Of a stretch of DNA of 64,000 nt, positions 6,207-60,667 are shown piece after piece (positions within the stretch are counted from its first letter, which is position 1; every line of letters begins with the position of its first letter). The translations under genes and the position numbers were made by a program. The notes beneath the pieces were generated by a model. The model did not search any database. It was not told where the DNA came from and was given only the letters and a program-made list of their open reading frames with translations. This stretch comes from a virus, in the IMG/VR virus record IMGVR_UViG_3300018875_000003, positions 1 to 64,000 of that record, one strand, 5' to 3'.

Positions 6207-9200
6207 CTATGAATACTCCTCCACTTTATCCCGGTACCAGTTTCGGGAAAGCTTCGCGGTGTTGTCGGTATGATTAATGCTCATATTCATCCGGCCGCCG
6301 CCGAAGTTCGACTGCTGCATCCCCTGATGGACCATGCGGGAGAAGTCCTGAGTATTCTGATTGTTACCTTTTGCCTTTACTTCAATGCTTGCTCCGCCCT
6401 GTGAGGCACCTGAATAATCAAGGCCTGGAAGTGCAGGTGCAGGCGTGCCGCCACCGTAATTTGGTGCCTGATCGGCAGCAGTCGGTAGTGGCGCATTGTA
6501 TGGCGTTACAGGTTCAGTAGAACTAAGAGTATTGTACCCTATAACCCCTGCCAGCGCTAGGGCTGCACCGCCCATAATCATTTTATTTCTCTTTCCGTTT
6601 GCGCCATCGAATACCGTTTCCATCGCTCGCTTGACGGCATCGTTTGCACGCATGCCCATCATGCCACCCGTCATGTCTTCGATCGTCTCCGAGAACATGC
6701 CGGCAATACCTCCAGACCTGCGGGCTGCTCGCTCGAAGAAGCCTGGTTCGTTTGGCTCCACTCGGAAGCCGGACTCCGACATGCCTGCCCCTTCGCCATC
6801 GATACCCATCAGGTTTCGGATCAGTCCGAGACCGGAGTTAGAGCTGCCGCCTTCACCGAAGATGGAATCCACGATGCCGCCGACACCTACCCGCTCGGGA
6901 CTCATACCGCTGCTGGTACCGAACTTTTTGAATGGGCTGCTCAGTCCACCATCCAGACTGTGAATCTTCTGGAGTTCGCGGATCGCTGACTCGTGACCGG
7001 TAACACCATCCGTGTTGCCGAAGAACTGCCGATCGAACTCATGGACTCTTCTCCAGTCGGATTCCGTAGATGCTCGGTACATGGAGTTGATAAACGACAT
7101 CGCGTCATCGATCTCCTGCGCACCGTGCTTGGATGAGATCAGCTTCTGCTCCAGGTCTTGACCGAAGTCATAGATGGCTTGGCGGGCTGCATCATCGTGA
7201 CCGAGGAACGTTTTCGCTTGCTGCCGCATCGCGTAGTTTAAGTTGGATGCGTGGCCGATTACCATCTTGCCGGACTTCGCTGTCAACTCCGATCGCTCGT
7301 TGGCGGCGAACTCAGTAAAGTGCTCCTTATCCGATAGCGATTCCAGATCGAAGTTCCGGCTCCGGTCTTCGTCATAATCAGACCATAGCTTCTGAATAGC
7401 CGAGGAGCGCTCTGCTGCGCGGTCGTGGTAGATACGCGCCCACTCGTTCTGAATCTTGTCATTCGTGATGGCCACGATGTTATCGTAGTCACCGTCAGAG
7501 TCGGCTTTCATCAGAGCGGATGTCAGGGCGGTTACATGGAACTCGCCTTCCCGGATGCCTTCCTTCATCTGCAGCTTCGTCACTTGCATCGCATTATCAT
7601 GAAATGTCGGATACCGGACGTTCATCGCATACGTGTCGGTCCCGGCAGCCAGCCGGTCGTACACACCCATCTTCCGAGCGTCTTCCGGGGAGATAAAGGT
7701 ATACTCGCCGCCGAGGGATTCTGAAGCTTTCGGATCGATCAGCTTGAAGATACCGCTACCGGACTGGTTCATGTTCGTCTTGAACACGCTGCTGTACGTC
7801 TGCCCCTGGGAAGAGGTAACGTCTTTGGCCAGACGGTTTACGTATCGGTCGATCGACTGCTGCAGCTTGCCTTGGGCTTCTACGGCTTCATCGTAAGAGG
7901 ACACGCCATTGTTCTTGCCGATCGCAGCTGCTCTCCGGTAGATGTCTGCAATATGATTTTGCAGATCCCGCAGGTACAGCTCCCCACCCTTGCCTTCCTG
8001 TGCCGTGAATGGCACGAAGATTTTATCGATGGATTTTCGCACTTCCCTGCGGTTCACGCCGCTGCCTTCTACCCGATCCACATAGCTGTAGTTCAGGTCT
8101 CCGACTTTCGGCAACTCCAGCCAGTAGCCTTGCTGGCTTGTATTCTCTCCGAGCATCTGGGAGACGTGCGCCCGGTCGAAGATCGTACCCACCATGGAGT
8201 TCTGGTTGTAACCGTCCACCGGCAGATCGCGGAAGTCGCTGACCGATAATGCCCGTCCTGATACCGAGTCTGGGTTAACGAACGTATTCAGCGCGGTGAT
8301 CATGTTTCGGGATTCCTGCGCCCGGTAATTCGATTCATTGGTTGCCAGCATGCGATTGTACATATACTCTTTGGTAGCCGAAGCTCCCATGTTATCCAGT
8401 ACGCCATATTCACGATGGCCCCATGTTACACCCTTGATTGCATTCTCGCCGCCTGCATATATCGGCTCATCTCCTCGGAAGCCGATAACCACTCGTCCAG
8501 TGTCATCTGTCATTCGGGAATAGTTCTGAACCTGCGAAGCCCGAACCTCCTGAATGGCCGTTGTCAGGCCGGTCGCCGTTTTGTTATTCAGGTTGATGTC
8601 TGGATGAGCGAACAGCTTGTTGAAGGCATCTGTGCTAATGTCGTTCTGCGGATTCGCCAGGAAACGATCGCCTTGCCAATCCAGACCGATGCCAGACTCC
8701 CTGACGGCCGCCAGCGCCCGCTCCTGCTGCGCCGGATTCATGTCTTGAATGTGGTCGGCAAGCAGCTTGGCTTGACCGGTCATCATCGCACCAAAGTCTT
8801 TGTGCTTCTTCACGTCTGGGTTGTAGATCGCCATGACGTCATCAGAACCTGTCAGGTATTTCATTAATTCTCTGGATACTACCGTGTCTGTGGTCTTCTC
8901 CCCCTCGATCATGAATTTGAAGGGACGGTCTTCGGTGTGAATGCCGATTCGGTTCTCATCATGGTCGGTGAAGATTGTGCCGGACTTATTGCCCTGGTAG
9001 TAAACCTTCTCGTCTACTCCGCCGATCGAACGTGCCCCCAGCAGGTCGCCTGGGTTTACAGTGCGCTTCAGATGCCCGTCTTGGTAGAACTCACTGTTCC
9101 AGGTGAAGACGTCTCCTTTATCGATGAAGCTATGGTTGTCTACTTTGTAGGCATCCATGATTTCTTTCGTAAAGATGGCCTGCTGCTCATACAGTCTGGC

Positions 9201-12200
9201 TTTCAGAATCGGATCAGAGATCTGGTCTTTGATGTCCTGACTGACCTTGCTGTCGGCCAGCAGCTGCGCTACTCGGTCGTCCAGTTGCCCCTGGGACATA
9301 TAGGCGACCTTCATGTTCACGCCACGCTGCGCAGGATTGGCTGCATTGCGCTCTTCCATGGCTGCCGTTGTAACGAGACCCCCAAAGTAAGACGGCTTCA
9401 TGCCGGCTTCCAGGAGCCCCTGACGTGTGCGCTCATTGACGTTGTAGGAGTTGAACCACTGCACGGCATTGTCGCGGCCGTTAAAGCTGAATGCGCCGAG
9501 TGGATGATAATCCTGAACGTTCTGGAAGGACCAGATACCCTTCGATACATTCTCCGATTTTACGCTGCCGGCAAAGATGTTCAGGCCTTTTCCAGCTGCC
9601 CAGTCATCGACTTCTTTCAGCATCTCATACGCTTTGTGCGGAGACAGATCGTTGAAGGTTGCATGCCGGATGTCGCCGCCGCGCTGCAGCTGTCCACGTA
9701 GTCCGTCTTCCCGTATATCCCGGTCCAGATCGATACGTCCGGCAGCATGCCAGTCTGCGATCATTGCTGGCGCCACGCTGACGTGAGATTGCTTCAGGAA
9801 GTCAGAGTCATTGTTGCCCCAGTAGTATCCGTCATTCTGGGAAACGACGTTGCGCTTGATGCCGGACAGTGATTCGATCTCGCCGCGCAGCGCCCGTCTG
9901 CTTCGAGTATTGGCTTCTTCGTAATCATCGTCTCGCACAGCATTGAGGATGTTGCGCATCTCTCGGGAGTCTGTGTAGCCTCTGGCGATCATCTCAGCCG
10001 AGGAGATGGTCTTGGTCTCGCCGCCTTCATTCACGAGGAAGGAGCGGGCATTGAGGACTTGGTTGCCGATAACATGTGTGCCGTTCTGCTGAATCAGCGG
10101 TACGACCACTTCGGCTGCTTTACTGTGCGATTCGCCGGCAAGGAATTTCTCCATGACGCTCGCGCTGTTCTCGCTCTTGAAGATTTGAATCTTCGCCTGT
10201 GTGCCTTCCTGATTCAGGGATAGGTTGTATTGTAAACCGTGGATGCCCATCCGATCGGCAGTCGTCCGGTAGTTCTCCAGAACGTGGTTGACGGCTGCGT
10301 AGTTGTTGCTGCGCAGTCCTGACGCATGTTGGATGCTGTCGAGTCTACCAAACAAGTCGATCGCTCCGTCATCCATCTTCACTCGTTCATTCTGAATACC
10401 GTGCTGCATGATGAATCCTTGAATCCCACTTGTCTTGGTCAGAGCCGATTGAATCATCGACTGGTTGACCCCTTCGCTGATCTGCTGCATCTCCACACGG
10501 CGGCCGACCGATTTGATCTTCAGGTTCTGCTGCATAATGTCATGGTTATCCATCAGGTCTTGCACCATCATGTTAATACTGTCGTTGATGGCGTAGCTTC
10601 GGTTAAACTCGTGGAACTTACCGGCTACCTTCCGATCAATGACTCCACTCTCCTGCAGGGAGGTAATCATATTGCCGAGGCGTTCTTTCTTGCGATCTAC
10701 CGTATCGTCCGGTTTGCCGATCTGACGGTAGATTGCATTACGGGCAGTCTCCATGCTTTCGAAGTTCAAATACCGCTGCTCTTTACGGGCGCTGGTTCGA
10801 TCAACGTAGTGGATGCCGCGCTGCTCGAATGGCTGTGTGGCGCGCTCAGTCATGTCGCCGCCGACTTTGCTGTTTACCTCCTGGCTGTATAAACGCCAAG
10901 CGATATCTCGCTGCTGCCGGACTCGGCGCACTTCCTTATCGCTCATGCCTGGAGTGATCGCGTATTTCTCTTCAATCGCCTGGATTGCCTGATTGTAATG
11001 CGGCAGCTCGTCTACAAGACGAGGAGCCATCCGGAAGAACAGCTTCTGCTCGGCTTCGTTGAACTTGCCACCCGGCAGACTGTTGAAGTCCATTCGACTC
11101 ATCATCTCTTCGTGAGTAATCCGGCGATCCATCATCTGCTTACGTGTTACAGAAGTGTCGGCATCCATCTGTTGCAAGGTGCGCTGGATGTGGGAGTCTT
11201 TCCCGGACAGACGCTCTTGATAGATAGCGGCATTGCTATACATCCGTTTGGCTGCTTCAAAACCGCGAGTCGTTGTATTGCCGCCTGCGCCGGACAGGGT
11301 GAACAGGTTGTCGTAGCGTCTGCGGGCGAGGTCGGTTTCCTTTTGAACACGAATCTCCCGCTGCATTTCCTTGGTTAATCCATTCCAGTTGTAGAACTTG
11401 CGCTGGACGAAGTTTTCGATCTGCTCAATCGCATCGTTTCCTTCGCGGATGATGAAGGAAGTTTTCTTACTCTCCGGATCATACAGGTCAAGCGCCAGTC
11501 GGTTTGTTCGCACCGTGCCGTCTTCATTTAAGTCAGAGATGTTGCGCAGCCCCTGTACTTCATAGAAGGACTTGCTGTTGATGGCCATGCGGTTGAAGTC
11601 CGGGTCTTCTGCTTTGAATGCGCCGTCTACCAGATCGGCCTGGAAGTCACTGGCTCCATTGCCGTAAGCCATAGCACCTCCGATAGAGAACAGCCGGTCG
11701 CCGCGCTTCAGCACGCGATCGCTCCAGCTCAGCTCCGTAGGACGGTAGCTGAATCCGAACGTATCAATACCAGGCAGCTCCTTGGCTTGCTCCACTTTGG
11801 ATCCGATGCCGTTAAACATTCGGGCAAATACACCGCCAAGGCCTTCCTCCCCGATATCGTGCATTGCGTTGTGGGCTGCGCCTTGGTCAAATCCGAATGT
11901 CCGGCGAAGCTCCTGCAGCGTAGCCAGACCACCAAGCGCCGGTTTGGATTCAAAGCTGCGCCCGAAGTCGGTGTGCAGTCCCTTCATATTTGGATACGAA
12001 GACTGAATGACTCTCAGGAAGTCGATGTGCTTTTTCGGACCCATGATCGGCTGACCCATTTTCTGACTCCATAGCTCCAACGCTGGAATATCGAAGTTGG
12101 TTCCGTTATGAGACAGGAAGTATTTATACCGGTTGTCGTGCATGAACTTATTGTACCGGTTGATAACGCCGAGGTGATCCTTTTCCCCGTTCGCCTGCAG

Positions 12201-12977
12201 GTCATTGAAACCCTGGTTGATGTGGCGAAGGTAGAACTCGAAGTTCTGTATAAACTTCAGGTCATCGATCGTGCCATCTGTACGCAGAATCTGGTTGACG
12301 ACTTGGTTGTGGGTGATATTTGTAATCCCTCGGTTCGTCTGCAGAAGCGCACCGGACACGCCGCCTTCGTTTGATGTACTGTAGCGCATCAAGTCAATAA
12401 CTGTCCGCTGCTCAGAGGATGTCATTTTACGGAAGCTGTACGGGTCTGTCTTGATTTTCTTAATCAATCCCTTTACTTCCGTGGCTGATTTATTATCCAG
12501 TGCCAGCAGCGCGCTGAACACGCTTTTCGCGTTAGCCTTGTAGCTGCCGTCTGCTTGACGGGAAAATCCCTGCGCGGCAATCTCAGTGACACCGAATCCT
12601 GCGCCGCCGTTCTTTGCACGGTCGCCCATAGTCTCGATATCGAAAGCAATGTATGAGTTGTGCTTGCTGCTCGGGTCTTTCGCTTTCTGTACGAAGTTCT
12701 GGAAAACCTCGATTGCGCTTCGGGACTGGTTGCCGTTAGCGGCGTAGTACTCTGGCATGACCTTGTACTTGCCTTGGCCAATGATCGACTGTGGCATAAT
12801 CCGGGAGTTATTGATCTTCTCCACCAGCTGATCGACCTGTCCTTTGCGGCTGTCTTTCTTGGCGTAGTTCGGACTTGTAACGGGATTGAAAGCCGTCACA
12901 GGAACCCAGGTTCCGCGGCTGTTTGGAGCAACCGCTTGGAACCCTTCGGCCATTAATATATCCTCAATTCCTGCCAT
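6207..12977 (-). CDS. Single-chain beta/beta'-like two-barrel RNA polymerase with N-terminal DEDDh 3'-5' exonuclease (putative virion RNAP)
   Basis: DEDDh motifs: AFDIETMG, SHNGTNFDIP, AHNAMHD. beta-like motifs: GVNMKVAYM, FKFMIEGEK, DVMAIYNP, GVTWGHREYGVL. beta'-like motifs: GYWLELP, LQQSIDRY, NVRYPTFH, catalytic MKADSDGD (~7488-7502). Confidence 0.8.
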   Translation of the reverse strand: MAGIEDILMAEGFQAVAPNSRGTWVPVTAFNPVTSPNYAKKDSRKGQVDQLVEKINNSRIMPQSIIGQGKYKVMPEYYAANGNQSRSAIEVFQNFVQKAKDPSSKHNSYIAFDIETMGDRAKNGGAGFGVTEIAAQGFSRQADGSYKANAKSVFSALLALDNKSATEVKGLIKKIKTDPYSFRKMTSSEQRTVIDLMRYSTSNEGGVSGALLQTNRGITNITHNQVVNQILRTDGTIDDLKFIQNFEFYLRHINQGFNDLQANGEKDHLGVINRYNKFMHDNRYKYFLSHNGTNFDIPALELWSQKMGQPIMGPKKHIDFLRVIQSSYPNMKGLHTDFGRSFESKPALGGLATLQELRRTFGFDQGAAHNAMHDIGEEGLGGVFARMFNGIGSKVEQAKELPGIDTFGFSYRPTELSWSDRVLKRGDRLFSIGGAMAYGNGASDFQADLVDGAFKAEDPDFNRMAINSKSFYEVQGLRNISDLNEDGTVRTNRLALDLYDPESKKTSFIIREGNDAIEQIENFVQRKFYNWNGLTKEMQREIRVQKETDLARRRYDNLFTLSGAGGNTTTRGFEAAKRMYSNAAIYQERLSGKDSHIQRTLQQMDADTSVTRKQMMDRRITHEEMMSRMDFNSLPGGKFNEAEQKLFFRMAPRLVDELPHYNQAIQAIEEKYAITPGMSDKEVRRVRQQRDIAWRLYSQEVNSKVGGDMTERATQPFEQRGIHYVDRTSARKEQRYLNFESMETARNAIYRQIGKPDDTVDRKKERLGNMITSLQESGVIDRKVAGKFHEFNRSYAINDSINMMVQDLMDNHDIMQQNLKIKSVGRRVEMQQISEGVNQSMIQSALTKTSGIQGFIMQHGIQNERVKMDDGAIDLFGRLDSIQHASGLRSNNYAAVNHVLENYRTTADRMGIHGLQYNLSLNQEGTQAKIQIFKSENSASVMEKFLAGESHSKAAEVVVPLIQQNGTHVIGNQVLNARSFLVNEGGETKTISSAEMIARGYTDSREMRNILNAVRDDDYEEANTRSRRALRGEIESLSGIKRNVVSQNDGYYWGNNDSDFLKQSHVSVAPAMIADWHAAGRIDLDRDIREDGLRGQLQRGGDIRHATFNDLSPHKAYEMLKEVDDWAAGKGLNIFAGSVKSENVSKGIWSFQNVQDYHPLGAFSFNGRDNAVQWFNSYNVNERTRQGLLEAGMKPSYFGGLVTTAAMEERNAANPAQRGVNMKVAYMSQGQLDDRVAQLLADSKVSQDIKDQISDPILKARLYEQQAIFTKEIMDAYKVDNHSFIDKGDVFTWNSEFYQDGHLKRTVNPGDLLGARSIGGVDEKVYYQGNKSGTIFTDHDENRIGIHTEDRPFKFMIEGEKTTDTVVSRELMKYLTGSDDVMAIYNPDVKKHKDFGAMMTGQAKLLADHIQDMNPAQQERALAAVRESGIGLDWQGDRFLANPQNDISTDAFNKLFAHPDINLNNKTATGLTTAIQEVRASQVQNYSRMTDDTGRVVIGFRGDEPIYAGGENAIKGVTWGHREYGVLDNMGASATKEYMYNRMLATNESNYRAQESRNMITALNTFVNPDSVSGRALSVSDFRDLPVDGYNQNSMVGTIFDRAHVSQMLGENTSQQGYWLELPKVGDLNYSYVDRVEGSGVNRREVRKSIDKIFVPFTAQEGKGGELYLRDLQNHIADIYRRAAAIGKNNGVSSYDEAVEAQGKLQQSIDRYVNRLAKDVTSSQGQTYSSVFKTNMNQSGSGIFKLIDPKASESLGGEYTFISPEDARKMGVYDRLAAGTDTYAMNVRYPTFHDNAMQVTKLQMKEGIREGEFHVTALTSALMKADSDGDYDNIVAITNDKIQNEWARIYHDRAAERSSAIQKLWSDYDEDRSRNFDLESLSDKEHFTEFAANERSELTAKSGKMVIGHASNLNYAMRQQAKTFLGHDDAARQAIYDFGQDLEQKLISSKHGAQEIDDAMSFINSMYRASTESDWRRVHEFDRQFFGNTDGVTGHESAIRELQKIHSLDGGLSSPFKKFGTSSGMSPERVGVGGIVDSIFGEGGSSNSGLGLIRNLMGIDGEGAGMSESGFRVEPNEPGFFERAARRSGGIAGMFSETIEDMTGGMMGMRANDAVKRAMETVFDGANGKRNKMIMGGAALALAGVIGYNTLSSTEPVTPYNAPLPTAADQAPNYGGGTPAPALPGLDYSGASQGGASIEVKAKGNNQNTQDFSRMVHQGMQQSNFGGGRMNMSINHTDNTAKLSRNWYRDKVEEYS

Positions 12978-12989: not shown

Positions 12990-15900
12990 TTAGATCAGAG
13001 AATCCATATTCTCCTTGAAATAATTGTCGAGTTCGCCGGAACGATCTTCTTCGTAATTGAATTTCACGTTGGTATTGCCCTGCTCATTCGGCATGATCCG
13101 AATCTCTACATCCGTCAGCCCCTGCCCTTCAAGTACAGCTTGAATATTCTGCTGCATCTGTTGGTAGCCGGAAAACTGCGGGCCATGTAGGAAGACGTCG
13201 TTGCCTGCCGGACTGATGTCGGGGAGGTAGCTGGAAGACACTACATCGTCAGACCAGAAGTTAAAGTCACTCATATCTAGTCCGCTATCTTGTACTGCCT
13301 TTACCTTCATATCATCCAGATCGACATTCGGATTCCATCCGATCCATCCCGGGTCTGGCAGCACAAATTTGGAGAAGACTTCTTCCAGTGGCTTCGGCCC
13401 TTCATCACCCATGCCCCACATCGCTTTATAAATCCGGCGCTGGTTTTCGGGAACGAGTTCGAGTATGCGTTGCCGGTCTTTCTCCGGCGCGTTGGCGAAG
13501 TCATCGAAGAACCATTTGTCCTTGTATGGGAAGGCGCTGGCCAGCTTCATACGGTCGCCGTGCGGGTCTGCTCCATACAGCGTGCGCTCGTACATATCCT
13601 TGAAGTGCATCGCCGTGAGGACTTCATCCGGCAGTTGCATTTCATTGAAATCCTGGCCAATCGTCTCTATCTCTTTATTGATATCCCTGCGCCGGTCTTC
13701 CCAGCCTTTCGGTTGATCAATAAACAGTCGGAGTTTTTCGTCTTCGAGTTCTCGTTTGCGCTGTTTATTCAATTCTTCTCGCGCGGATTCATCATTCATG
13801 ATGGCATCCACATCGTAGCCAGCATCAGCAGCATCCTGCTTTGCTTGCTCATATAATCCATGATATTTCATGTACTTCAAGACGTCAAAGTATTCATTAA
13901 TATCATTTTCAATTCGTCTGCGCTCCGGAATCCAAGCTTCGCCGGTCTCCTTCTCGTAGTGCTGTCGGTATAGGTTTCCGATCCCCGCGCCGACTGCGCC
14001 GACGATACCGCTGCGGATGATATTCTTCTTCCCTGCCCCGAAGATATTCAGGAAGCCGCCGACCAATGCACCGGCGATCGCGCCGCGCATCATCGAGTCA
14101 TCAAGGTCATGCCGGATGATCGATTGAAATCCTGGAATCAGGTAGTCATCGATCATGAAATTTTCCCAGGTAGACCAATCCTTGCCGTACACCTGATCGC
14201 GCTCGTATTCTTCCAGTGCGGTCCGCACCTGCAGGAACTTCGTATTCAGTGGGGATTCAAAGTGGGCGATACGCTCCCATCTGGCTCCCTTGGAAATCTC
14301 AGCCTGCGTGAAGCGGGCGAAGACGGCTGGTGCGGAGAAGTCGGTTTCGTTTTCCTTCATCAGTCCACGCTGCAAGATGTCACGGTTGATATTGCCGATC
14401 TCTTTATTGAAGACGACAACGCGTGCGGTGTTGTACGTATCGCCGGATAGCTGCTTGCTCTCATCGCCGTTGAGTCCGATGGTGATTTTATCTCCCTGCT
14501 TGATGTAGGACTGCAGCACACCTTCTGCTCGCGGTCTCAGATTCATACCGGCCAGGCGGAAGACCTGATCACCATATTCCTCGGTTACGAAGCTATAGTC
14601 ATCCAGGAACTTACGGACGGTGGCGTTCTGGTATTCCAGCTCAGCGCCTTCAAAGCGATACGGAGTGAACTCGTACTTCTGCTTCCGTCCGGCCACCTGA
14701 CGCTTGATCTCAGCCGCTTGCTTCCGCAGCTCCGGGTCAGTGTTGGTCTGCACCACATAATCCCGCCAGAACTTATATTCATCACTCCACGGCGCTACAT
14801 CGGCAAGGATCTTAAATTTGTCGAATGCACCGTATGCGCCAGTCTCGTCCGGATGAAGCTGATTCAGTTTCTCGTAGGACTCGCCCGGCAGCCGGAACTC
14901 GCCGTGATCGATCTTCTGGTATGGATCGCCGGTCTGGAAATCGATGAAGTAGTTTGCCCCCGGCAGCCAGTCGGGCATTGTGTTTTCAATCGGATTATAT
15001 TTATCGAGCTGTCCATCATCACGCCGAATGAAACGGCGACCGATCTCTGACAGCTGTCCGCCGAGTGAACCGGCATTCAGACCCTGAAAGGCGTTCGACA
15101 GGTTATAGGCAGCGTCTGCCTTCTCAATAACTGTCTTGCCTTCGTATGGGTTGTAGCCAGCCATTTCATCTTGGATAATCCACTTGTATACCCCGAGCGG
15201 TTCAGACCAGTTCTCCCAGGCTTCCTGTGCGAGCCATCCTGCGCTTGTTGGGTCTTTCAGTTCTTGCAGCTTCCGGTTCTCCAGCTCCTGTTTGTAGATG
15301 AATCCATCATCAAACATTGCGCGCGGCTTGGTCTTAATCAGTGCTTCGTCATCGGATTCCTGAGCAATCTGGAACAGCTGGCCGGTCGTATAATCCTTGT
15401 TGGCCATGTTGGCCGGGACGTATACGGCTTGACCGGTGCCGACGTCTTGAGCAATGTAAGCTCCGGTCGGGTTGCCCTCTCCGTCTTTCTGATCGATCCG
15501 GATATACTGCGGCATTGCCGTGCCGTCGCCCTCTACATATTGTCCAGCACCGTAATCGCCAGAATCTGCATAGACGACATTCTCCGTGCGCCCGCCTGGC
15601 GAGAACCGGGTGATAATCGGACTCGTTGGACGCTGGATTACATCTTCTGTTCTTTCCTGCATCAATACAGGGTCGCCCCAGTAATCCGGGTGCATTCTCT
15701 CCGTAGGCTTAATCAGCTGCCCGATCGTTGCGTTTCCGATGTCTCCGAAGAATGGAGTATTCGGGTTGAACAGCGATCCTGTGATGAGATACGGACGGTC
15801 GTAGTAGTGCTTCTTCTCCCAGTAGTACGGATCGTTGAGCCCAACCGCATAAGCCAGTCCGCCGAGCGGATTCCGGAAGGTTGGAATCATATTGGTTTCG

Positions 15901-25245: not shown

Positions 25246-25248
25246 TGT

Positions 25249-38671: not shown

Positions 38672-38675
38672 GCCA

Positions 38676-41019: not shown

Positions 41020-41067
41020 TGTGAATGTCACTCCTTAATTTGGTTTACTTGCCTTTATAGGCTTTTG

Positions 41068-44765: not shown

Positions 44766-44807
44766 GAATCACATCTCCTTTCCGAGCAAGTCACTTTGTC
44801 TTTATCA

Positions 44808-44836
44808 ATTATATATTAAACTTGTAACACGTTACA
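44808..44836 (-). promoter_or_regulatory. Portal promoter with palindromic operator over the -35 region
   Basis: TGTAACGTGTTACA (44823-44836) lies 9 nt upstream of TATAAT (44808-44813) on the minus strand. Confidence 0.55.
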
Positions 44837-44842
44837 CTTTGA

Positions 44843-46096
44843 CTAGACGCGGTATCCATTTGCCTCCAAATACTCACTCGCCCATTCGTCGGTGATTTCA
44901 CCGACCTCTTGCAAATCCTCTAATATCCTTAAAAATCTTCGTATTTCCTCCTTTTTTTGAATCAGCTGATATTGTTGGCTATAAAAAATAGCTTCTTGCT
45001 GATAAAAACGAGTCATATCCGTAACACTGGAATCGTATTGTTTTTTGCTTTCCAAAAGGGAGCCAACCATGATTTCGGCCAGTGCATTCATCGATTCATT
45101 GGATTCAGATTGATTGTAGAGCCAGTTCTTTACACCAGTGCCGGACTTGGACTCCAGCTGCTGATGAAACCACTGCTGCTTCGACACATACGCTTCCTTC
45201 TGGTCATCAACCAGCGCGTATTGTCCTTTGAGAGAAGTCAGCTTATCTTTGATCGTTCGGAAGGACAACATAATGTAAGCTGCTGCCGAGGATTTGTCTG
45301 CCAGCGTATTCAGCTGCAAGATCATCTCCTTCAGATCATCTTTCATAACGATGGTCGGGTCGGCAATCAGGAACTGGAACTGATCGATCATCTGGGAATA
45401 CATCACATACCGGTTCCGGTGAACGAAGGATGTGTCTGCCAAAGACACATGCAGCGTCTCCATTTGTTTACGGGCGACATCCTGGTTGTAAATCTCCTTC
45501 TCCATCGAAGCGATGTTTGTATTCTCCGTGTCTTCCTCATGGCTGTGTTCTTCTGAATAGGCGTCTTGAATTTGATCTGTCAGATCGTTGAAGCTCTGTT
45601 CGGCTTGCACCCATTGATCGATCATAGACGACTCGGCATTCGCTACAGCTTCCAGGTCGGAGTTATCCGTAATCTGATTACGGTAGTGATTATCCAGAAA
45701 GGTTTGCTGCAATTGGCAGGAAGCCTTCATTCGGTAAAGGATCGTATACAGTTCAGCATCGCCAGAGCCCCGTGGACCGCATAGGATGTCCTCTTGCGCA
45801 ATGATGGCATCTTGCTTGCCGCTGGTGAGCGCCGCCTTATACGCGGCAAAATCCTTCGTCTGGTTGCGGTTGTCGATGACCTGCAGCAGGGCAGCAATCC
45901 GTTCAACCAGTTCAGCATAGCCGGTCAGGGCGCTGGTGATCGTAAAGTCCTCGGACCGTTTGATCTTCTGTACAGTGGATGGGTCGATCCGGAAGAATCG
46001 ATCTTTTTTCGGCAGCTTTACGTCTGGGCGATAATTGATTTGGCTGCGCTCATAGGACGTGTCTATCCCGCGCTGTCCAAAGATATCTTCAGTCAT
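44843..46096 (-). CDS. Hypothetical helical/coiled-coil protein
   Basis: 417-aa ORF with GGAGG RBS between terminase and portal. Confidence 0.55.
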   Translation of the reverse strand: MTEDIFGQRGIDTSYERSQINYRPDVKLPKKDRFFRIDPSTVQKIKRSEDFTITSALTGYAELVERIAALLQVIDNRNQTKDFAAYKAALTSGKQDAIIAQEDILCGPRGSGDAELYTILYRMKASCQLQQTFLDNHYRNQITDNSDLEAVANAESSMIDQWVQAEQSFNDLTDQIQDAYSEEHSHEEDTENTNIASMEKEIYNQDVARKQMETLHVSLADTSFVHRNRYVMYSQMIDQFQFLIADPTIVMKDDLKEMILQLNTLADKSSAAAYIMLSFRTIKDKLTSLKGQYALVDDQKEAYVSKQQWFHQQLESKSGTGVKNWLYNQSESNESMNALAEIMVGSLLESKKQYDSSVTDMTRFYQQEAIFYSQQYQLIQKKEEIRRFLRILEDLQEVGEITDEWASEYLEANGYRV

Positions 46097-46262
46097 TGAT
46101 TCGACCTCCTGTTATATGTAAGGCGCAGACCGTTGTAGTCTGCGCCCCAGGGAAAGAGAGTTGATGAGCCTAGCCAGAAAGGATACAGGGGATTTTGTGC
46201 CTTCCACCCGCCCGCGCATTTACAGGAAGGGACAACGCATTACATCAGGCATTCCAGAGGAT

Positions 46263-51258: not shown

Positions 51259-52506
51259 TCATGATGCCTCGCTTTCAAATACGTTCTTAATAAAACGATC
51301 GTAGACTGCTTCGAAGTTCAGCGAACCATCCTCCTGCGGCTTGATCTGGCTGATAGCTGCACGGATATAGAAGCCGTACACGTTTGCCATTTGCGGATCA
51401 TCGACAGCAACGAAGGCTTGCACCTTGCGGGCAACAAACTCTTCACGCAGTGCGTCCTGGAAGATGTGGGCGCCGCCACCGGTCAGCAAGATAATCTTCA
51501 CGCGGTTTGCATGCTGACCCCACGATGTGATGACCTCGTGTGCAATGACTTCGGCAATCTCTTTAGCAGCCTGCTGCACTAGCGGAGCCATGTCGTGCTG
51601 ATCGCCATTGAAGTCGATCTTTATGCCGCGTACAGCATCGTCCAGGTCTGCGTCGGTTGGCGTGTAGGCGATGCCGAAATTTTCATCAAAGTATCGCGGC
51701 ATGCTCACTCTCAGGCGCTTATACAGTTCAGATGTTGCCACAGTGGAAGCGTAAGTACCCTGCTCGTCCATAAACACGCCTTCGGAGAACAGCGCATAGT
51801 CTGTCGTCAGGTGGCCGATGTCGATAACAGCCGTCATGGATCGATACAGTTCAGTTGTCAGGAGACCTTCTCTCGTAAACGCGAATTGCGAATAGGATAC
51901 GGTGCCTTCTGGCTGTCTGACAATTTCAGAGCCAATCACGTTGATGTTCTTGGTAATCGTCTTACCGAATCCAAGGTAGAATGTCACCGTGAATGTCTGA
52001 TTAATGTATTCTTCAAGTCTCTTCTTGATTCCCAGCTCGTAGTCATCGTTTGGCAGGCCGGTTGTCACGTACACATTGTAATCCCCATCCTCGTGCGGCA
52101 GGCACATGGCTAGGTTTGTTTCAAACAGGACACGGAAACTCTGATCGCTTGCCCGGTCGTGGTTGGTGGTACGGTTTGTCACCAGAAGCGCATTGCTCTT
52201 CATTGCCTGGGTGCCAACGTGGAAGATTCCATCGCTAGTCTTCACCATCAAACGATCCTCATCGATTGTTGTGTTTCTCAAAGAGTTTGCATATTTCTCG
52301 TTTGTTGTTTGCACAGTCGATGGCATTACGCCTGCTTGACCTGTGCTGGATAGACGCTTCGCTCCGCCGAATCCGATATCGAGACCAACGATCTCATAAC
52401 CGAATGCGTCAGCGAGTACTTGCAATACTGTCTGGCGCTGGCCTGTCTCCTCTTGACCTGTTTCAATAGCTTTTGCCTTTGCTGCTGCACCTGTTTTAAC
52501 CGCCAT
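51259..52506 (-). CDS. parM: ParM/StbA-family actin-like partition NTPase
   Basis: GLDIGFGGAK (phosphate 1), TTGLP, QPEG, VIDIGHLTTD (phosphate 2), ILLTGGGA (adenosine), ANVYG. Confidence 0.85.
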   Translation of the reverse strand: MAVKTGAAAKAKAIETGQEETGQRQTVLQVLADAFGYEIVGLDIGFGGAKRLSSTGQAGVMPSTVQTTNEKYANSLRNTTIDEDRLMVKTSDGIFHVGTQAMKSNALLVTNRTTNHDRASDQSFRVLFETNLAMCLPHEDGDYNVYVTTGLPNDDYELGIKKRLEEYINQTFTVTFYLGFGKTITKNINVIGSEIVRQPEGTVSYSQFAFTREGLLTTELYRSMTAVIDIGHLTTDYALFSEGVFMDEQGTYASTVATSELYKRLRVSMPRYFDENFGIAYTPTDADLDDAVRGIKIDFNGDQHDMAPLVQQAAKEIAEVIAHEVITSWGQHANRVKIILLTGGGAHIFQDALREEFVARKVQAFVAVDDPQMANVYGFYIRAAISQIKPQEDGSLNFEAVYDRFIKNVFESEAS

Positions 52507-55763: not shown

Positions 55764-55792
55764 ATTGTAACGCGTTACAAAGTAGTTGACAA
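55764..55792 (-). promoter_or_regulatory. sigmaA promoter of the leftward block, overlapped by a 16-bp perfect palindrome
   Basis: TTGTCA-17-TACAAT; TTGTAACGCGTTACAA at 55765-55780. Confidence 0.7.
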
Positions 55793-56519: not shown

Positions 56520-56833
56520 GCATGGCATAGGTATATAGGGAGTACACGATAACGGTGGATGATCCCCTCTATAGGCTATGCCCTCTATCTATGTCCTGCA
56601 TGGTGACATAGGTAGCAGTACTGTATCATGCTATGCCTTGTATGTGGGCATATGGGCGTGTAGGTGCGCTTACTCATATACACCCCCTGCATAGTACGTA
56701 TTGGTTAAGGGTCAGCCGCCCCCATACGTAGTGTGCAGGGGTTTTCTTTTATTTACTTATAGCTCCCTGTATAGGTGGCCTATATAGACCCCCTCTATAT
56801 GGCACCCCCTATATAGGGAGCTGTATGTAAGTA
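56520..56833 (+). other. Cluster of five consecutive hairpins upstream of the YonO-like gene
   Basis: ggcatag..ctatgcc; ctatctatgtc..gacataggtag; atatggg..ctcatat; cccctgca..tgcagggg followed by a T-tract; agctccctgtatagg..cctatatagggagct. Confidence 0.6.
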
Positions 56834-56862: not shown

Positions 56863-57036
56863 ATGACAAAGCAACTCTTATTAAGCAAAGGTGAACACCT
56901 GGGCTTCTGCCCAATGAAAGGCGATCTGTATTCGGTAGAATCGGGCCTTTCTATTTTCGGTAAGCCGCAATACCGCATTTATTCCCTGAAAGGAGATTCC
57001 ATCAGTGAACTCATCTCATTCCAAGTCATCCGCTAA
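56863..57036 (+). CDS. Hypothetical 57-aa protein (not in ORF track)
   Basis: GGAGG RBS; MTKQLLLSKGEHLGFCPM... Confidence 0.55.
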   Translation: MTKQLLLSKGEHLGFCPMKGDLYSVESGLSIFGKPQYRIYSLKGDSISELISFQVIR

Positions 57037-57106
57037 TCTGTCGTCCCGTCTGTCGTCCGCCGCTCTGTCCAACCAAACTAAAACTAACCAAAAGGGGTTT
57101 TCCACA

Positions 57107-60100
57107 ATGACAACTACTAACAACAACAAACAAGCTCAAATCAACAAGCAACTGGCTCAAGTTAATCGTCTGTTCAACCAAGCTGTAAAAGGCAACAAAG
57201 TGAAAGCTGAAATGTCCGAACTCAAGTCTGCTTCTGTAATCCTCGATGCGATCGCTACATTCCCAGGACTGGGCGTGAAAACGAAGAACTATGAAGCGAT
57301 CACAGCAGCTATGGCAGAAGGACACAGCCTGCGCAGCATCATGCTTAATCCGGAGCTGACCGGCGTAGCGAAGAACCAATACCGTTACTTCCGTGCATTC
57401 ATGGATGCTAAAGGTGACGACATCCCTGAGATGGTTATGGCTCCGACTCGTAAACGTGTACGTACTGTATCGGTCGATCTGCTGAAGCACTCCCGCAACG
57501 AAGCTGGTGAAGTGGTGCTCAACGCGGAGGTTAACTTCCAATCTCAGTCTCAGCTGGCTGATGCGTTTGGCTCCCTTGCTGCCGACGACAAGAGCGATCT
57601 GTACTTGGATATGGCTCACGTTGTTTACATCGACCTCAACATCGCTGATCAAGAGAATCAGGAATTGAAAGACTTGCAGGTCGAGGTTGTACGCAACGGA
57701 TTCTACTACAGTGTGGATGGCGTTACACACAAAGCCAACTTCTTCATTCAGACAGCATCCCAGGCTCGTCAGCTGCAAGGTATCTACATTGCCGAAGACT
57801 TCATGACGATCCCGCAAGCATTCAAGAAGCTGGGTCATGACTTCCTCGCTTACTGCAAACTGAGCAAAGATGGCATCTATACACTTGACATCACGAAGTA
57901 TCTGAAACGTCCAGGTCTGTCTGGTACAAGCTCGGTATCTTCGAAAGCAATCACATTCCCGAATGCTCGTATCAGCAAGCTGGCTAATATGACTACTGGT
58001 GAATACCTGGTTGAATCCGATCGTCACACGATGGCGGTTATCGAGGATCGCTTTGCAAAGATCACCAATGGCACATTCAAAGCATTCTACAACAACCGTG
58101 TGGTAACTGTGTCTGCTGTTGATGGTGTATTCACCGCTCAATGGAAAGATGGCCGTCTGACTAAACAAGAAGTGCTGCCTATGAACTACCTGAAGCTGGG
58201 TGTAGGCGATGGCTTGGTTCTGGCATCCGAGTCGATCTACTGGGCACTCAAAGCCGAGCATGGCAATGACTCTGACGCATGGCAAGTACGTATCACCCCA
58301 TTCGTTAAAGGTCTGATGGTATTCGTCCCTGGCCTGCGCAAGTATTATGATGCAGACATCGTTGCATTCAAATCCGCTGTGAAAGGTGACTTCCGCCTGA
58401 TCGCTGACGAAGAAGGACGCTTGGACTTTAACATCGAGCTGCGTATTGCTCGCTTTGCTAAACGTCCAGGTAAGAAAGCGGAGTATGTAGAGCTGCCGTA
58501 TCAGTTCGCTCACGTATCCAGCATCACTGCAGAGCAAATGATCAATGTAGCTGCTCCACGTCTGGAGGAAGCAAGAAACGTACTGTCCAACCCTGCACTG
58601 ATCCAGAAGTATACTGGCGTGGCTCACCTCGAAGACCTGAGCAAGCTGACGACTGCGGAAGCTGAGTTTATGCGTGATCGTTCCCTTGTATCCGTATTTG
58701 CTAACTTCATGCACTATGCCCCATTCACGTATGAGGATGCTTACATGCAAACACGCGCTCTGCAACTGATGGGACAGCAAGTAGACAAATGGGTTGCTGG
58801 TACAATCCCTGTAGAAGGCGAGTATCGCTTCATGGTTCAGGATCCGTATGCTCTGCTGCAAGCTGTGGCTGACGAAGATGGTGATATGATTGTTCCCGCT
58901 TCCGTTGGTCTGCGTCCGCATCAAACATTCATGACTGCACGCGATAACAAACACTTTGTGACTGGACCGGTTGCTTCCTTCCGTAACCCAGCGATCGCTA
59001 AAGGTGAAGGCCGCGTACTGAAAGGTGCTGCTCCGGAGAACTATGTAACCGCATCTGCGAAAGGCGCATTCAACTCGGTCTGCATCATGAGCTGCCACGA
59101 TCTGGACACGTTCGCTGAAGGCGGCGCGGATAACGATGGTGACGAAACATTCGTAACGCAAGTGCCTGAGATCGTAAACAGCATCATGGGCAAAGATGGC
59201 GAATCCAAGTTCCTGGCTATGCTTGACCTGCATGTAGGCAAAGATGGTGAGTGGGCTTCCGGTTGCCCGTTCCCTATGGAATCCGATGAGAAGCTGACAT
59301 TCGGTGCAGCATGCGTGGATCACGATGGACAATTCAAAGTGAAGTTCACTGCTGATCAATACGATGATGCTTTCATCCAAGCTGTGCATGAGCTGAGTAA
59401 AGAGTATGTCATCCGCACGCTGAACCCGAACAAGATCGGACAGCAAACAAACATCGCTACACGTCTGGCGGATGCTGTGCGTAAGGTTGGCTATATGTAT
59501 GCTGAGGGTGTAGACGAGTTCGGTCAAGCTGTCGATCGTACCGAAGCAGAGAAACAAGATCTGCTGCATGAGATTGTACGCATGGAAGAAATGATCGATC
59601 TGGTTCGTCTGACACAAGGATGGGAGATTGACCGTGCGAAGCATGGCGGTGCATACGAAGAAGCACTGGCTGCCGAGCTTAACTTCATCAACAACCCACC
59701 GAAGTATGCTGGCTTCCAGGAGAATCCGAAAGCGAAACGCGTATGGATCAAGCAAGCATGGTTGTCTCACCACAAAGGCACTGAAGGTGGAATCGATACA
59801 GGTTCTGTAATGAGCCGCGTACACAACCACATGAAAGCATTCGTACAGGAGAATGTAATCGACAAGTCTGAGGAAATCAAGAACGATGTCGAGAACAACA
59901 ACATCATCCATGTACTGAGAAGCGAATATGCTATCGATGCTAACAAGTATGAGGCTTTGGCTGCTGTGATCCGCTCGATCCGTGCATCCTACACTGCCGA
60001 CCTGATGAATGCCCGCAATAAGAATGCAGAGTTCAACAAGCTGGCTGAAATCAAATACAACGGCAACGACCACGCTATTCGTATGGCGAAAGCTAAGATC

Positions 60101-60667
60101 GAACGTATCTATAGCGAAGATTGCGATGCGATCACATTCAAGCACCAGGCTGCACTCGCTGCACTGGAATTGTCTTACTCTGCTACAGATATCGGCTATG
60201 TATCCTATATGGTGACATATACGGAGCGTGGTAAAGATGGCAACCGCTCGATCAGCTTCCCTTGGGTTGTGGCTAAGAAACAATTCCTGGAGCTGTGCGC
60301 GAAGATTGCTAATCGCGAGATCGTGAAGAATCCTTATCTGGTTCCCGCTTCTGAAATCAAAGCAAACTTCCGTATTGCAGAAGATCCACGCAGCACAGAA
60401 GGCAAACACTATGATGGTATGAAGATGGCTGAGGTTATCAAGCAAGCTGGTTCAATCGAGGTTATGTATACGCTGAACGAGGTAACTGGTGTGTATGGTT
60501 ACGTGGCATTCGTGCCTGTAGGCAGCAGACTGGTATATGTCGGAGATTTCTATCAGGATCAGGTTGCATTCATGACCGGAGCTACCCACTTCGAACTGAA
60601 TGTATCCAATGCAGAAGCAAAAGGACAAGCCATGACCCTGACAGTCTCCAGCGTAGGTCGTAAATAA
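57107..60667 (+). CDS. YonO-like / RNAi-RdRP-related single-subunit two-barrel RNA polymerase
   Basis: VGDG, AWQVRITPFVKG, FRNPAI, catalytic GGADNDGD (59129-59143), IGQQTN and EIDRAKHG appear in the order seen in QDE-1-type RdRPs and SPbeta YonO. Start set to ATG 57107 (AAAGGGG RBS). Confidence 0.85.
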   Translation: MTTTNNNKQAQINKQLAQVNRLFNQAVKGNKVKAEMSELKSASVILDAIATFPGLGVKTKNYEAITAAMAEGHSLRSIMLNPELTGVAKNQYRYFRAFMDAKGDDIPEMVMAPTRKRVRTVSVDLLKHSRNEAGEVVLNAEVNFQSQSQLADAFGSLAADDKSDLYLDMAHVVYIDLNIADQENQELKDLQVEVVRNGFYYSVDGVTHKANFFIQTASQARQLQGIYIAEDFMTIPQAFKKLGHDFLAYCKLSKDGIYTLDITKYLKRPGLSGTSSVSSKAITFPNARISKLANMTTGEYLVESDRHTMAVIEDRFAKITNGTFKAFYNNRVVTVSAVDGVFTAQWKDGRLTKQEVLPMNYLKLGVGDGLVLASESIYWALKAEHGNDSDAWQVRITPFVKGLMVFVPGLRKYYDADIVAFKSAVKGDFRLIADEEGRLDFNIELRIARFAKRPGKKAEYVELPYQFAHVSSITAEQMINVAAPRLEEARNVLSNPALIQKYTGVAHLEDLSKLTTAEAEFMRDRSLVSVFANFMHYAPFTYEDAYMQTRALQLMGQQVDKWVAGTIPVEGEYRFMVQDPYALLQAVADEDGDMIVPASVGLRPHQTFMTARDNKHFVTGPVASFRNPAIAKGEGRVLKGAAPENYVTASAKGAFNSVCIMSCHDLDTFAEGGADNDGDETFVTQVPEIVNSIMGKDGESKFLAMLDLHVGKDGEWASGCPFPMESDEKLTFGAACVDHDGQFKVKFTADQYDDAFIQAVHELSKEYVIRTLNPNKIGQQTNIATRLADAVRKVGYMYAEGVDEFGQAVDRTEAEKQDLLHEIVRMEEMIDLVRLTQGWEIDRAKHGGAYEEALAAELNFINNPPKYAGFQENPKAKRVWIKQAWLSHHKGTEGGIDTGSVMSRVHNHMKAFVQENVIDKSEEIKNDVENNNIIHVLRSEYAIDANKYEALAAVIRSIRASYTADLMNARNKNAEFNKLAEIKYNGNDHAIRMAKAKIERIYSEDCDAITFKHQAALAALELSYSATDIGYVSYMVTYTERGKDGNRSISFPWVVAKKQFLELCAKIANREIVKNPYLVPASEIKANFRIAEDPRSTEGKHYDGMKMAEVIKQAGSIEVMYTLNEVTGVYGYVAFVPVGSRLVYVGDFYQDQVAFMTGATHFELNVSNAEAKGQAMTLTVSSVGRK

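Follow-up and report, generated by a model that had tools for sequence, protein, structure and literature searches.

Two RNA polymerase homologues from different two-barrel families in a Paenibacillus-type virus of phage-plasmid character

Introduction

Cascades in which a virion RNA polymerase (RNAP) is followed by a non-virion one are known from lytic phages (phiKZ/AR9, N4, and P23-45). In the strictly lytic jumbo phages phiKZ and AR9, the virion polymerase acts first and the non-virion polymerase afterwards, both being split into several polypeptides that form paralogous sets. The injected giant virion RNAP of N4 reads short DNA-hairpin promoters and is a T7-like single-subunit enzyme, not a two-barrel one. 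Here, we analyzed the first 64 kb (64,000 nucleotides, hereafter the window) of the 116,980-bp virus contig IMGVR_UViG_3300018875_000003, which encodes two homologues of two-barrel (double-psi beta-barrel, DPBB) RNAPs that belong to different families: a giant protein of the tail module, referred to here as the tail polymerase, and a YonO-like protein on the oppositely transcribed arm. The logic of the lytic cascades may also run in this element, which is probably temperate and plasmid-borne.

Among two-barrel enzymes, the published account of P23-45 describes a virion RNAP (vRNAP, gp96) that transcribes pre-early genes, including the gene of the non-virion RNAP (nvRNAP), from AT-rich promoters, and an nvRNAP (gp64) that uses a different, GC-rich motif for early and middle genes, while the host polymerase reads late genes; the pair was proposed to stem from duplication (PMC10770324). 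According to the report on SPbeta YonO, the target of this enzyme is the late operon of structural and lysis genes, which it reads from one start site with an undefined promoter; promoter finding by YonO-type enzymes is named there as an open question (PMC5467207). Fusions of beta and beta' in mobile elements, such as C. glutamicum NCgl1702 (2169 aa), are mentioned in the literature (PMC2919709, PMC7824862). The virion-then-non-virion strategy is therefore already known, and earlier papers already point out YonO-type enzymes in jumbo phages of Bacillus (PMC7824862, PMC2147016, PMC2919709). In the papers found, with the supplements of two-barrel surveys (for example, the 23 RNAP family alignments of PMC10770324) outside the search, an exonuclease-fused beta-beta' tail polymerase family is not described, nor is its pairing with a YonO-type enzyme of separate ancestry, nor such a pair in temperate plasmid-phages of Bacillales.

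CheckV estimates a completeness of 59% for the contig, and a 213,157-bp contig in the protein collection carries the same proteins. These data suggest a ~210-kb Paenibacillus-type virus that is able to live as a plasmid and bears two very different RNAPs of its own, an equipment that suggests a staged gene-expression program.

Results

A beta-beta' polymerase fold in a giant tail-module protein

The tail polymerase gene (6207–12977, minus strand) directly follows the gene in the tape-measure position and has a glucosaminidase-bearing giant on its other side, with sheath, tube, and chaperone genes upstream. Its core found no sequence match in Pfam, PHROGs, or a phmmer search of the PDB, a family-profile search of the PDB returned exonuclease matches only, and tblastn of the protein against 50,697 phage records gave none at an expect value (E) ≤1e-5. 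Since sequence searches failed on the core, residues 1130–2060 (930 of the 2256 residues) were folded, and it was the fold that allowed identification. The AlphaFold model, built from a 31-row alignment, has a predicted local distance difference test score (pLDDT) of 87.8 and a predicted template modeling score (pTM) of 0.85. Foldseek against the PDB returned at least 500 matches at E ≤1e-3 (best 2.5e-7, ~410–490 columns), and the top matches listed were all second-largest subunits of cellular or viral multisubunit RNAPs.

A second structural search, run as all against representatives and scored by Z, resolved both halves of the enzyme. Residues 1–420 of the model resemble beta/Rpb2 chains (Z 12.8–14.6), among them Pol I A135 (4c2m_B, Z 14.6), bacterial beta (Z 14.3), and the beta-like subunits of the AR9 nvRNAP (7s00_C, Z 14.5) and the phiKZ nvRNAP (7ogp_C, Z 14.3), which are thus among the best matches. 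Residues 435–927 resemble beta'/Rpb1 (7ob9_A, Z 11.4 with 403 aligned; 6edt_D, Z 9.9), and isolated DPBB domains match residues 608–730 (Z 10–12). Single-chain enzymes align with the core from end to end: QDE-1 (7y7p_A, Z 10.6), P74 gp62 (8f5m_A, Z 9.3), and P23-45 gp96 (8h2m_A, Z 9.1).

The motifs expected of a catalytic center are strictly conserved. ADSDGD (1825–1830) and VRYPTFH (with R1788 and P1790) are invariant in 24 of 24 homologues, down to 24% identity, as are D1826, D1828, D1830, K1354, and K1361; the R-x-P and DxDxD positions were matched to the superfamily by motif order, not by residue-level superposition. Within the beta-like half, K1354, E1360, K1361, K1391, and E1264 are invariant and are candidates for the two basic residues and the acidic residue that the beta-type barrel would supply. 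On the modeled fold, the tail protein is a two-barrel RNAP homologue with its catalytic motifs intact.

Ahead of the core lies a DEDDh exonuclease-like domain. The Pfam RNase_T model matches it at E 7.7e-4, below its cut-off, and in the PDB the family profile finds TREX2 and exonuclease domains of family B DNA polymerases (2jgu_A, E 0.0077); residues D113, E115, D296, H369, and D374 are invariant in all 24 homologues. A conserved C-terminal domain follows the hydrophobic segment behind the core, and this end of the protein would act as an anchor.

A YonO/QDE-1-type polymerase heads the opposite arm

The first large gene of the opposite-strand block, following only a 180-aa open reading frame (ORF), encodes the YonO-like protein, as a sequence-only reading of the window had proposed from its GGADNDGD motif. 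A strong AAAGGAG site accompanies its GTG start (57005). Translation from there gives an N-terminal extension, which is conserved at the protein level in an 80%-identical relative, there with its own AAGGAGG-ATG, and the PGAP start of the orthologue corresponds to the position of M35 (57107). We recovered 26 homologues of 1050–1280 aa, mostly on contigs of 186–229 kb or on plasmids of Paenibacillus, Alicyclobacillus, and Virgibacillus, and 17 of these match the Pfam RNA-dependent RNA polymerase (RdRP) family PF05183 (best E 5.1e-19). The family profile weakly reaches plant RDR2 in the PDB (E 0.003), and the HMMER alignment places RNPAITKGE and GGADNDGD on KNPCLHPGD and GGDLDGD of RDR2.

A model of residues 35–1220 (pLDDT 86.3), which includes extra N- and C-terminal domains, most closely resembles QDE-1 (7y7q_B, Foldseek E 7.2e-19, TM-score 0.42/0.53) and RDR2 (7w82, E 3.5e-17); the 22 matches at E ≤1e-3 comprise 21 RdRPs and gp66 of crAss-like phage phi14:2 (E 2e-4). 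GGADNDGD (706–713) is invariant in 26 of 26 homologues, as are D402, R429, K435, R660, P662, D709, D711, and D713, the counterparts of the eight residues listed as invariant across all two-barrel enzymes in PMC2919709. The gene product is thus, by its modeled fold, a QDE-1/YonO-type two-barrel RNAP homologue with intact catalytic motifs.

A terminator-like stem, which the automated scan did not flag, precedes the YonO-like unit, and a stem-loop follows its stop codon, so that the gene looks like an insulated single-gene unit. The same was inferred for orf99 of 0305phi8-36 by Hardies et al. (PMC2147016). Between the upstream repeats described below and the GTG start lies a 57-aa ORF (56863–57036) that is missing from the 80%-identical relative G001.

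The two polymerases are of different families and co-occur in related elements

Comparison of the two family profiles with hhalign gave a probability of 0.38% (E 0.16), that is, no detectable similarity, and the structural neighbors differ: beta/beta' for the tail polymerase and QDE-1 for the YonO-like enzyme. Paralogy by duplication, as proposed for the P23-45 pair, is therefore not what we find here. The sequence-only reading had claimed two unrelated two-barrel RNAPs in one phage-plasmid; their presence in one element is borne out by both folds and the invariant DxDGD motifs, and "unrelated" holds at the family level, the two sharing one fold superfamily.

Co-occurrence across related genomes, suggested by the same reading as a check, holds in part. 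Eight PLSDB plasmids of 200–260 kb carry both genes full-length, with B. licheniformis (three plasmids), B. paralicheniformis, B. halotolerans, B. thuringiensis, P. rhizovicinus, and P. urinalis as hosts. As a plasmid, the element persists in strains of both genera that can be cultured, and its two polymerases differ in ancestry. The YonO-like gene is present in nine of the 11 records fetched via the tail polymerase, and in all six that are at least 90% complete. The two exceptions are a 61%-complete fragment and a B. thuringiensis genome with a decayed tail protein, a lineage in which both polymerase functions appear to have been lost together. Plasmids NC_011774 and CP132202 encode only the N-terminal half of the tail protein and gave no YonO-like match. 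Each enzyme also occurs alone in other phages, and to that extent the pairing is not general.

Distribution and probable virion role of the tail polymerase family

Searching 1.84 billion representative proteins with a core profile recovered 99 clusters at E ≤0.001. Nearly all are proteins of 2.1–3.1 thousand aa in which the core occupies the same relative position; there are also fragments, and no canonical RpoB or RpoC is among the clusters. Names were checked for 20 of the 99: they include hypothetical proteins of Oceanobacillus, of a "Bacilli bacterium" metagenome-assembled genome, and of a Rhodococcus-labeled assembly, as well as "virion structural protein gp095" of Bacillus phage vB_BceM_WH1, and none is a Corynebacterium name. 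With WH1 gp095 as the query, tblastn pointed to three jumbo phages of Bacillus in culture, namely WH1 itself, Edson, and vB_BauM_KLEB27-3. The tail genes of the window follow the order seen in the lytic jumbo myophages WH1 and KLEB27-3: sheath, tube, tail chaperones, giant, tail polymerase homologue, giant "baseplate" protein, lysin, and baseplate J. The homologues in these two phages are recognizable only with profiles and keep KADHDGD and KADYDGD at the aligned position; Pfam gave no match on WH1 gp095, KLEB27-3 gp034, or protein P0071. GenBank labels, which are unverified, call WH1 gp095 and KLEB27-3 gp034 "virion structural protein" and "structural protein". In BFVD, a collection of predicted viral structures, the best match is labeled "Minor tail protein" of an uncultured siphovirus (E 4.7e-20, TM-score 0.57 over the query), followed by an unnamed entry (E 6.9e-19) and uncharacterized proteins of Acinetobacter phage ME3 and Microcystis phage MaMV-DC. 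Because of its gene position and these database labels, the tail polymerase is most likely packaged in the tail and ejected with the DNA.

A decayed homologue sheds light on how the active site is maintained. On the 145-kb B. thuringiensis plasmid p1 (L016:1839-7184), a 1782-aa homologue has retained its N-terminal half (25% identity), a recognizable beta'-like part (E 5.6e-34), and the 59 C-terminal residues (41% identity). About 200 residues are gone, the beta-like barrel among them, and no DxDxD motif remains anywhere. The protein therefore appears to have a structural role of its own, and its active-site motif to decay when not needed, which argues that the invariant active site of the other members is maintained by selection.

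Two candidate promoter classes occupy separate territories

Two non-sigmaA motif classes were found, one of them palindromic, in separate territories at 56.8–62.1 kb and 61.3–102.5 kb. The element CTATATAG occurs eight times in the window against 0.33 ± 0.60 expected, and all copies lie within 56780–62077, flanking the YonO-like gene. The elements directly upstream of the YonO-like unit form an array within an ~80-nt block that is nearly identical in G001, there ~45 nt before the gene. Downstream, the copies CTATATAGGGAG and CTATATAGGAGG stand 12–14 nt before the start codons of small ORFs (61393 and 62091), a spacing that suits start sites for short leaders. CTATATAGG elements are not clustered at the polymerase gene in the relatives G003 or G008, in whose lineages other 8-mers are repeated around the YonO-like gene. 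Separately, the Alicyclobacillus element L023 has three direct GGTCTTTTYGGTGTTTCAAG-like copies 250–430 nt downstream of its YonO-like gene, a lineage-specific repeat at the same relative position as the downstream CTATATAG copies in the window.

The other class consists of C-TRAC-G, 7–8 nt, and GGCTNNNYGA. After the copy in the window, seven more follow on the plus strand of the contig (64657, 68307, 73146, 75209, 84590, 91069, and 102518), giving seven exact copies and one with a TAC loop, all on the plus strand, between 61.3 and 102.5 kb, intergenic, and 11–88 nt before start codons. In G001, five copies lie on the corresponding strand, and a reversed-pattern control found none. In eight of the thirteen copies from both genomes (type B), the constant C-TRAC-G (C-TAC-G in one) closes a stem; these stems comprise five fully complementary 6-bp sequences, one common to both genomes, and an imperfect one, so that changes are compensatory. 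Variable 6-bp stems with a fixed 3–4 nt loop are an N4-like trait.

Palindrome-linked sigmaA-like promoters lie on both arms

A sigma-70 consensus scan of 46–64 kb gave 32 sites against 26.3 ± 6.1 in shuffled sequences, which is no enrichment; site counts were therefore rejected as evidence, and palindrome-associated sites were used instead. The 14-bp palindrome TGTAACGCGTTACA has nine matches with at most two mismatches in the window, against 0.13 expected, with sites at 20316, 26674, 44823, 53115, and 55766. One copy lies ahead of the portal gene (44.8 kb) and another ahead of the tail-chaperone genes (20.3 kb); at the capsid (38665) and sheath (22463) genes, this place is taken by the variant GGTATAACGCRTTAAAC. 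On the rightward arm, TGTAACGCGTTACA stands beside TATAAT/TACAAT-like boxes at eight intergenic sites (contig positions 71255, 82988, 83022, 88622, 92000, 99093, 106605, and 116760). TGTAACGCGTTACA is probably the site of a global regulator. Its half-site TAACGC is also present in the hairpin motif.

The sequence-only reading had noted no convincing sigmaA promoter ahead of the YonO-like gene, as opposed to several in the leftward block. The first part stands: in the ~500 nt upstream of this gene there is no palindrome-associated sigmaA-like site, and the best consensus match is 9/12 (56914–56941). The contrast between the arms does not, since palindrome-overlapped sigmaA-like promoters occur on the rightward arm as well as the leftward one.

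Discussion

Comparison with described systems

The arrangement resembles that reported for P23-45, with a tail-associated two-barrel polymerase and a second two-barrel enzyme, the non-virion gene of P23-45 being among the first expressed there. Both have two distinct motifs, which in the window element are candidate promoters, the AT-rich one near the second polymerase gene and the other further on, and P23-45 still uses the host polymerase for part of its program, as we propose for the window element. In contrast to gp96, which in the published description is fused to the tape measure, the window's tail polymerase is encoded by a separate gene beside the one in the tape-measure position. It also carries an exonuclease, and its core is nearer to multisubunit beta/beta' (Z 14.6 and 11.4) than to gp96 (Z 9.1). 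Unlike P23-45, the window element comes from a Gram-positive mesophile host, has a contractile tail, and would be temperate and plasmid-borne.

With SPbeta YonO, as reported, the YonO-like enzyme shares its single-chain RdRP/QDE-1 type and Pfam family PF05183 (through 17 of its 26 homologues), from a temperate Bacillus phage in the case of SPbeta. Unlike the window element, SPbeta has no second polymerase in that account, and the window enzyme, at ~1200 aa, heads an early/replication arm. Closer in setting is gp99 of the jumbo Bacillus myovirus 0305phi8-36, a ~1200-aa RdRP-family protein whose single-gene unit heads small early ORFs and whose genome yielded phage-specific promoter candidates, according to its authors (PMC2147016, PMC7824862); its direct match to the window enzyme is weak (E 3e-4). 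0305phi8-36 is described, in contrast, as lytic and with terminal repeats, and it has no plasmid and no detected tail polymerase. The giant gp66 of phi14:2 (6vr4, ~2200 aa) is, like the tail polymerase, a single-chain two-barrel core in a larger protein, and its published structure is that of a virion-packaged enzyme. It belongs to a QDE-1-like clade, however, matching the YonO-like model and not appearing among the matches listed for the tail core; it lacks an exonuclease, and a second polymerase has not been described for phi14:2. Unlike phiKZ and AR9, the window has one fused chain plus an unrelated YonO-type enzyme.

A possible transcription cascade

In the reading we favor, the element would be a jumbo temperate myovirus that can be kept as a ParM-partitioned plasmid in Paenibacillus-type hosts, with two active DNA-dependent RNAPs from different families of the two-barrel superfamily. 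The tail polymerase, ejected with the DNA, would begin to transcribe the incoming genome with no need of host factors, at the AT-rich CTATATAGG elements that are confined to ~5 kb around the YonO-like gene. From its insulated gene at the head of the rightward arm, the YonO-like enzyme would be an early product and would then read the arm that follows, with small early ORFs and replication and nucleotide-metabolism genes, using the eight hairpin/C-TRAC-G + GGCT elements over the next 41 kb as its promoters. The TGTAACGCGTTACA-overlapped sigmaA-like promoters of both arms would be read by the host polymerase under an element-encoded regulator, and would serve the plasmid state and probably part of the late program. 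These three site assignments are favored because the arrangement resembles P23-45. For the whole chain, from ejected polymerase to YonO-like gene to later genes with the motif assignments, we put the chance a little under even. Consistent with it are the place of the tail polymerase gene right behind the one in the tape-measure position, the structural labels of its phage homologues, the co-occurrence of both genes, the lack of a YonO-like gene in the B. thuringiensis lineage whose tail protein has decayed, and the differing distributions of the two motif classes. As a guide to the first-entering end, the "direct terminal repeats" of relative G007 were considered and rejected; in assemblies, such repeats usually reflect circularity.

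Several observations weigh against this cascade. The window's own YonO-like protein has no match to the Pfam RdRP model at E ≤0.01. The structural labels of the WH1 and KLEB27-3 homologues are unverified GenBank entries, and no paper on these phages was found. Each enzyme occurs alone elsewhere: 0305phi8-36 has the RdRP-type gp99 with no detectable tail polymerase, and WH1 and KLEB27-3 have the tail polymerase with no YonO-like gene found by tblastn, the family profile, or PF05183. The GGCT motif precedes replication-type genes on the polymerase's own arm, as opposed to the late genes transcribed by SPbeta YonO, whose reported late role differs from the early one proposed here. Five of the thirteen GGCT copies (the GGTCGCTRACGCTCC type) fold poorly and have no good stem; the exact pattern is absent from the distant relatives G004 and G006, both of which have both polymerases, and in the distant relative G003 there is a single off-type match. 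CTATATAG is palindromic and present in both orientations, which suits an operator as well as a promoter, and the palindrome-linked sigmaA-like promoters of both arms belong on this side too.

Such points feed an account in which both polymerases are active and not in series, which we consider possible while doubting it. After derepression, the host sigmaA polymerase would make the YonO-like mRNA, as in SPbeta, and the YonO-like enzyme would then transcribe a limited gene set; the tail polymerase would act only at infection, on a few first transcripts or in DNA pulling, and the CTATATAGG array would be an operator silencing the YonO-like gene in the plasmid state. The symmetry of CTATATAG(G), with both orientations in use and a four-copy array at 13–16 bp spacing, fits this account, as do the many sigmaA-like promoters with a palindromic operator, the phages that have one enzyme alone, and SPbeta YonO itself, which acts after induction with no virion-polymerase link in the report (PMC5467207). 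It is harder to reconcile with the lack of any sigmaA-like site better than 9/12 upstream of the YonO-like gene, with the tight co-occurrence within the family and the apparent joint loss in the B. thuringiensis lineage, and with the CTATATAGG copies placed 12–14 nt before two start codons. The motifs themselves might instead be signals at the RNA level or for factor binding (in processing, antitermination, or translational control), or host-polymerase promoters read with an unrecognised phage specificity factor, which would leave the polymerases with narrower or different jobs; this we judge quite improbable. Stems with compensatory changes could form in RNA just as in DNA, the distance between C-TRAC-G and YGA bears a loose resemblance to a −35/−10 layout, and most element genes are "hypothetical" and could hide a divergent sigma-like factor. 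The motifs are, however, strand-specific, intergenic, and near start codons, and the search for sigma factors described below speaks against a recognizable one. Lowest in our estimation, and very improbable, is that the 2256-aa protein is essentially structural or an ejection protein, with its polymerase module a relic or used for priming or DNA translocation, and that only the YonO-like enzyme is a true transcriptase. The B. thuringiensis homologue does persist without an active site, and the N-terminal half and last ~60 residues are conserved independently of the core. Against this stand the catalytic triad and R-x-P, invariant in 24 of 24 homologues even at the lowest identity, the retention of the triad in cultured phages, and the confident folding of the whole 930-residue core as a complete beta-beta' assembly.

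Sigma factors were also searched for. The sigma70_r2 domain matches in WH1 (E 2.3e-15, over its cut-off) and KLEB27-3 (E 1e-4, below it), and is without a match in G000 (the window's own contig) and the two complete phage-plasmids G001 and G003, with the control positive in 10 of 14 reference genomes. A single weak r4_2 match occurs in G001 (E 0.001), and no sigma factor is named within 1–200 kb of the annotated P. urinalis relative, in a PLSDB gene table that is incomplete. In this very small sample, the pattern may mean that the second stage is run either by a sigma factor or by a YonO-type enzyme. Relatives with a sigma factor in place of the YonO-like enzyme, together with the lineage whose tail catalytic center has decayed, amount to a natural experiment.

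Returning to the cascade, a stronger version of it would be a three-tier and largely host-independent program, in which the exonuclease-polymerase fusion starts at CTATATAGG, the YonO-type enzyme takes over at hairpin promoters, and the palindrome regulator gates sigmaA promoters between the plasmid state and lysis. We consider this version unlikely. If it were true, the hairpin class (variable 6-bp stem, fixed C-TRAC-G closure, and GGCTNNNYGA) would be the first defined class of YonO/RdRP-type promoters, and hairpin promoters would link to the single-strand template preference of QDE-1. For promoter recognition by YonO-type enzymes, candidate sites are available in this family, along with natural hosts such as the plasmid-bearing B. 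licheniformis strains.

Genomic setting

Minus-strand genes run from ~55.7 kb down to position 1, and plus-strand genes begin at 55.96 kb (Table 1). Three minus-strand ORFs are giants of 1959, 2256, and >2065 aa. The tape-measure position of the first follows from synteny with vB_BceM_WH1, where the tail chaperonins gp098 and gp097 precede gp096; Pfam and PHROG searches with this protein were without a match. For the giant at the window edge, the E-value of the phrog_20474 match was printed as 0. On the rightward arm, the 180-aa ORF is probably a membrane protein. An Rfam search of the window at gathering thresholds gave no match, and a search of sequencing runs listed no RNA run that contains the element, a result neutral as to expression. 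Upstream of the ParM-like gene, GTAACA-18-TATAAT at 52536–52507 was considered as a parM promoter and rejected: with a −10 box that directly adjoins the start codon, the site is probably spurious.

Among relatives, the nearest (78–80% amino acid identity) comes from an isolate of Paenibacillus urinalis. It is a 214,846-bp circular plasmid with the same two divergent arms and with annotated capsid protein, terminase, and ParM/StbA genes. The window combines a tailed-phage structural module (terminase, portal, capsid, and sheath) with a ParM-like gene, and its relatives are extrachromosomal in isolates (eight complete plasmids). "Phage-plasmid", the term used in the sequence-only reading, is thus a fair description, the plasmid state of this metagenomic contig being deduced from relatives.

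Table 1 Features of the 64-kb window, ordered by position
Feature	Position	Strand	Basis or remark
Giant tail/baseplate protein, C-terminal glucosaminidase, open at window edge	2..6196	-	PF01832 E 1e-13; phrog_20474 1200.7 bits
2256-aa tail-module protein (tail polymerase)	6207..12977	-	Exonuclease, middle region, beta-beta' core, hydrophobic segment, and C-terminal domain
Hydrophobic, probably membrane-inserting segment, residues ~2133-2151	6525..6581	-	Translation; consensus GGGLALGG..GYNIL conserved
Predicted RNA polymerase core (residues 1130-2060), beta-like in its first half and beta'-like in its second	6798..9590	-	AlphaFold model
DSDGD metal-binding motif, residues 1826-1830	7488..7502	-	Invariant in 24/24 and 31/31 homologues
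DEDDh exonuclease-like domain, residues ~105-380	11838..12665	-	Weak RNase_T match and family profile
1959-aa giant, tape-measure position, after two genes in tail-chaperone position	12990..18869	-	Synteny with vB_BceM_WH1
Structural module	22474..48023	-	Terminase, portal, protease-like, capsid, sheath
Tail sheath	22474-25245	-	
Major capsid protein	38676-39761	-	
Protease-like protein	41068-42558	-	
Portal	42555-44765	-	
Large terminase	46263-48023	-	
57-aa ORF overlapping the parM stop codon, possible ParR	51089-51262	-	
ParM-like partition ATPase	51259..52506	-	phrog_691 E 3.1e-41; orthologue annotated ParM/StbA
GTAACATG repeats directly upstream of the ParM-like gene, plausibly a parC centromere	~52507-52600 (repeats ~52510-52560)		Read from sequence
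TTGTAA-17-TAGAAT overlapped by TGTAACGCGTTACA	53129-53101 (53115)	-	
SigmaA-like TTGTCA-17-TACAAT overlapped by TGTAACGCGTTACA (55766-55779), head of leftward arm	55764..55792	-	
180-aa ORF, first gene of rightward arm	55962-56504	+	Rich in hydrophobic stretches; kept in G001
Long stem (CCCCTGCA...TGCAGGGG) and T-run, terminator-like, between 180-aa ORF and YonO-like unit	56683..56753	+	Read from sequence; conserved in G001
Four CCTNTATAGG-like elements directly upstream of YonO-like unit, candidate early promoter or operator array	56766..56817	.	13-16 bp spacing
57-aa ORF with GGAGG site, between CTATATAGG array and YonO-like start	56863-57036	+	
Predicted YonO/QDE-1-type single-chain two-barrel RNA polymerase, 1220 aa from GTG	57005..60667	+	
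DNDGD catalytic motif, residues 709-713	59129..59143	+	Invariant in 26/26 homologues
15-bp stem-loop just after YonO-like stop codon	60691..60723	+	
Another six CTATATAG copies, in the stretch of small ORFs right after the YonO-like gene	61023..62077	.	
First of eight C-TRAC-G + 7-8 nt + GGCTNNNYGA copies, candidate phage-polymerase promoter	61283..61305	+	

The related P. urinalis plasmid (NZ_CP118109.1) also carries, between its two arms (121049–122348), genes for flagellin and a carbon storage regulator of the CsrA type, an unusual cargo for a phage.

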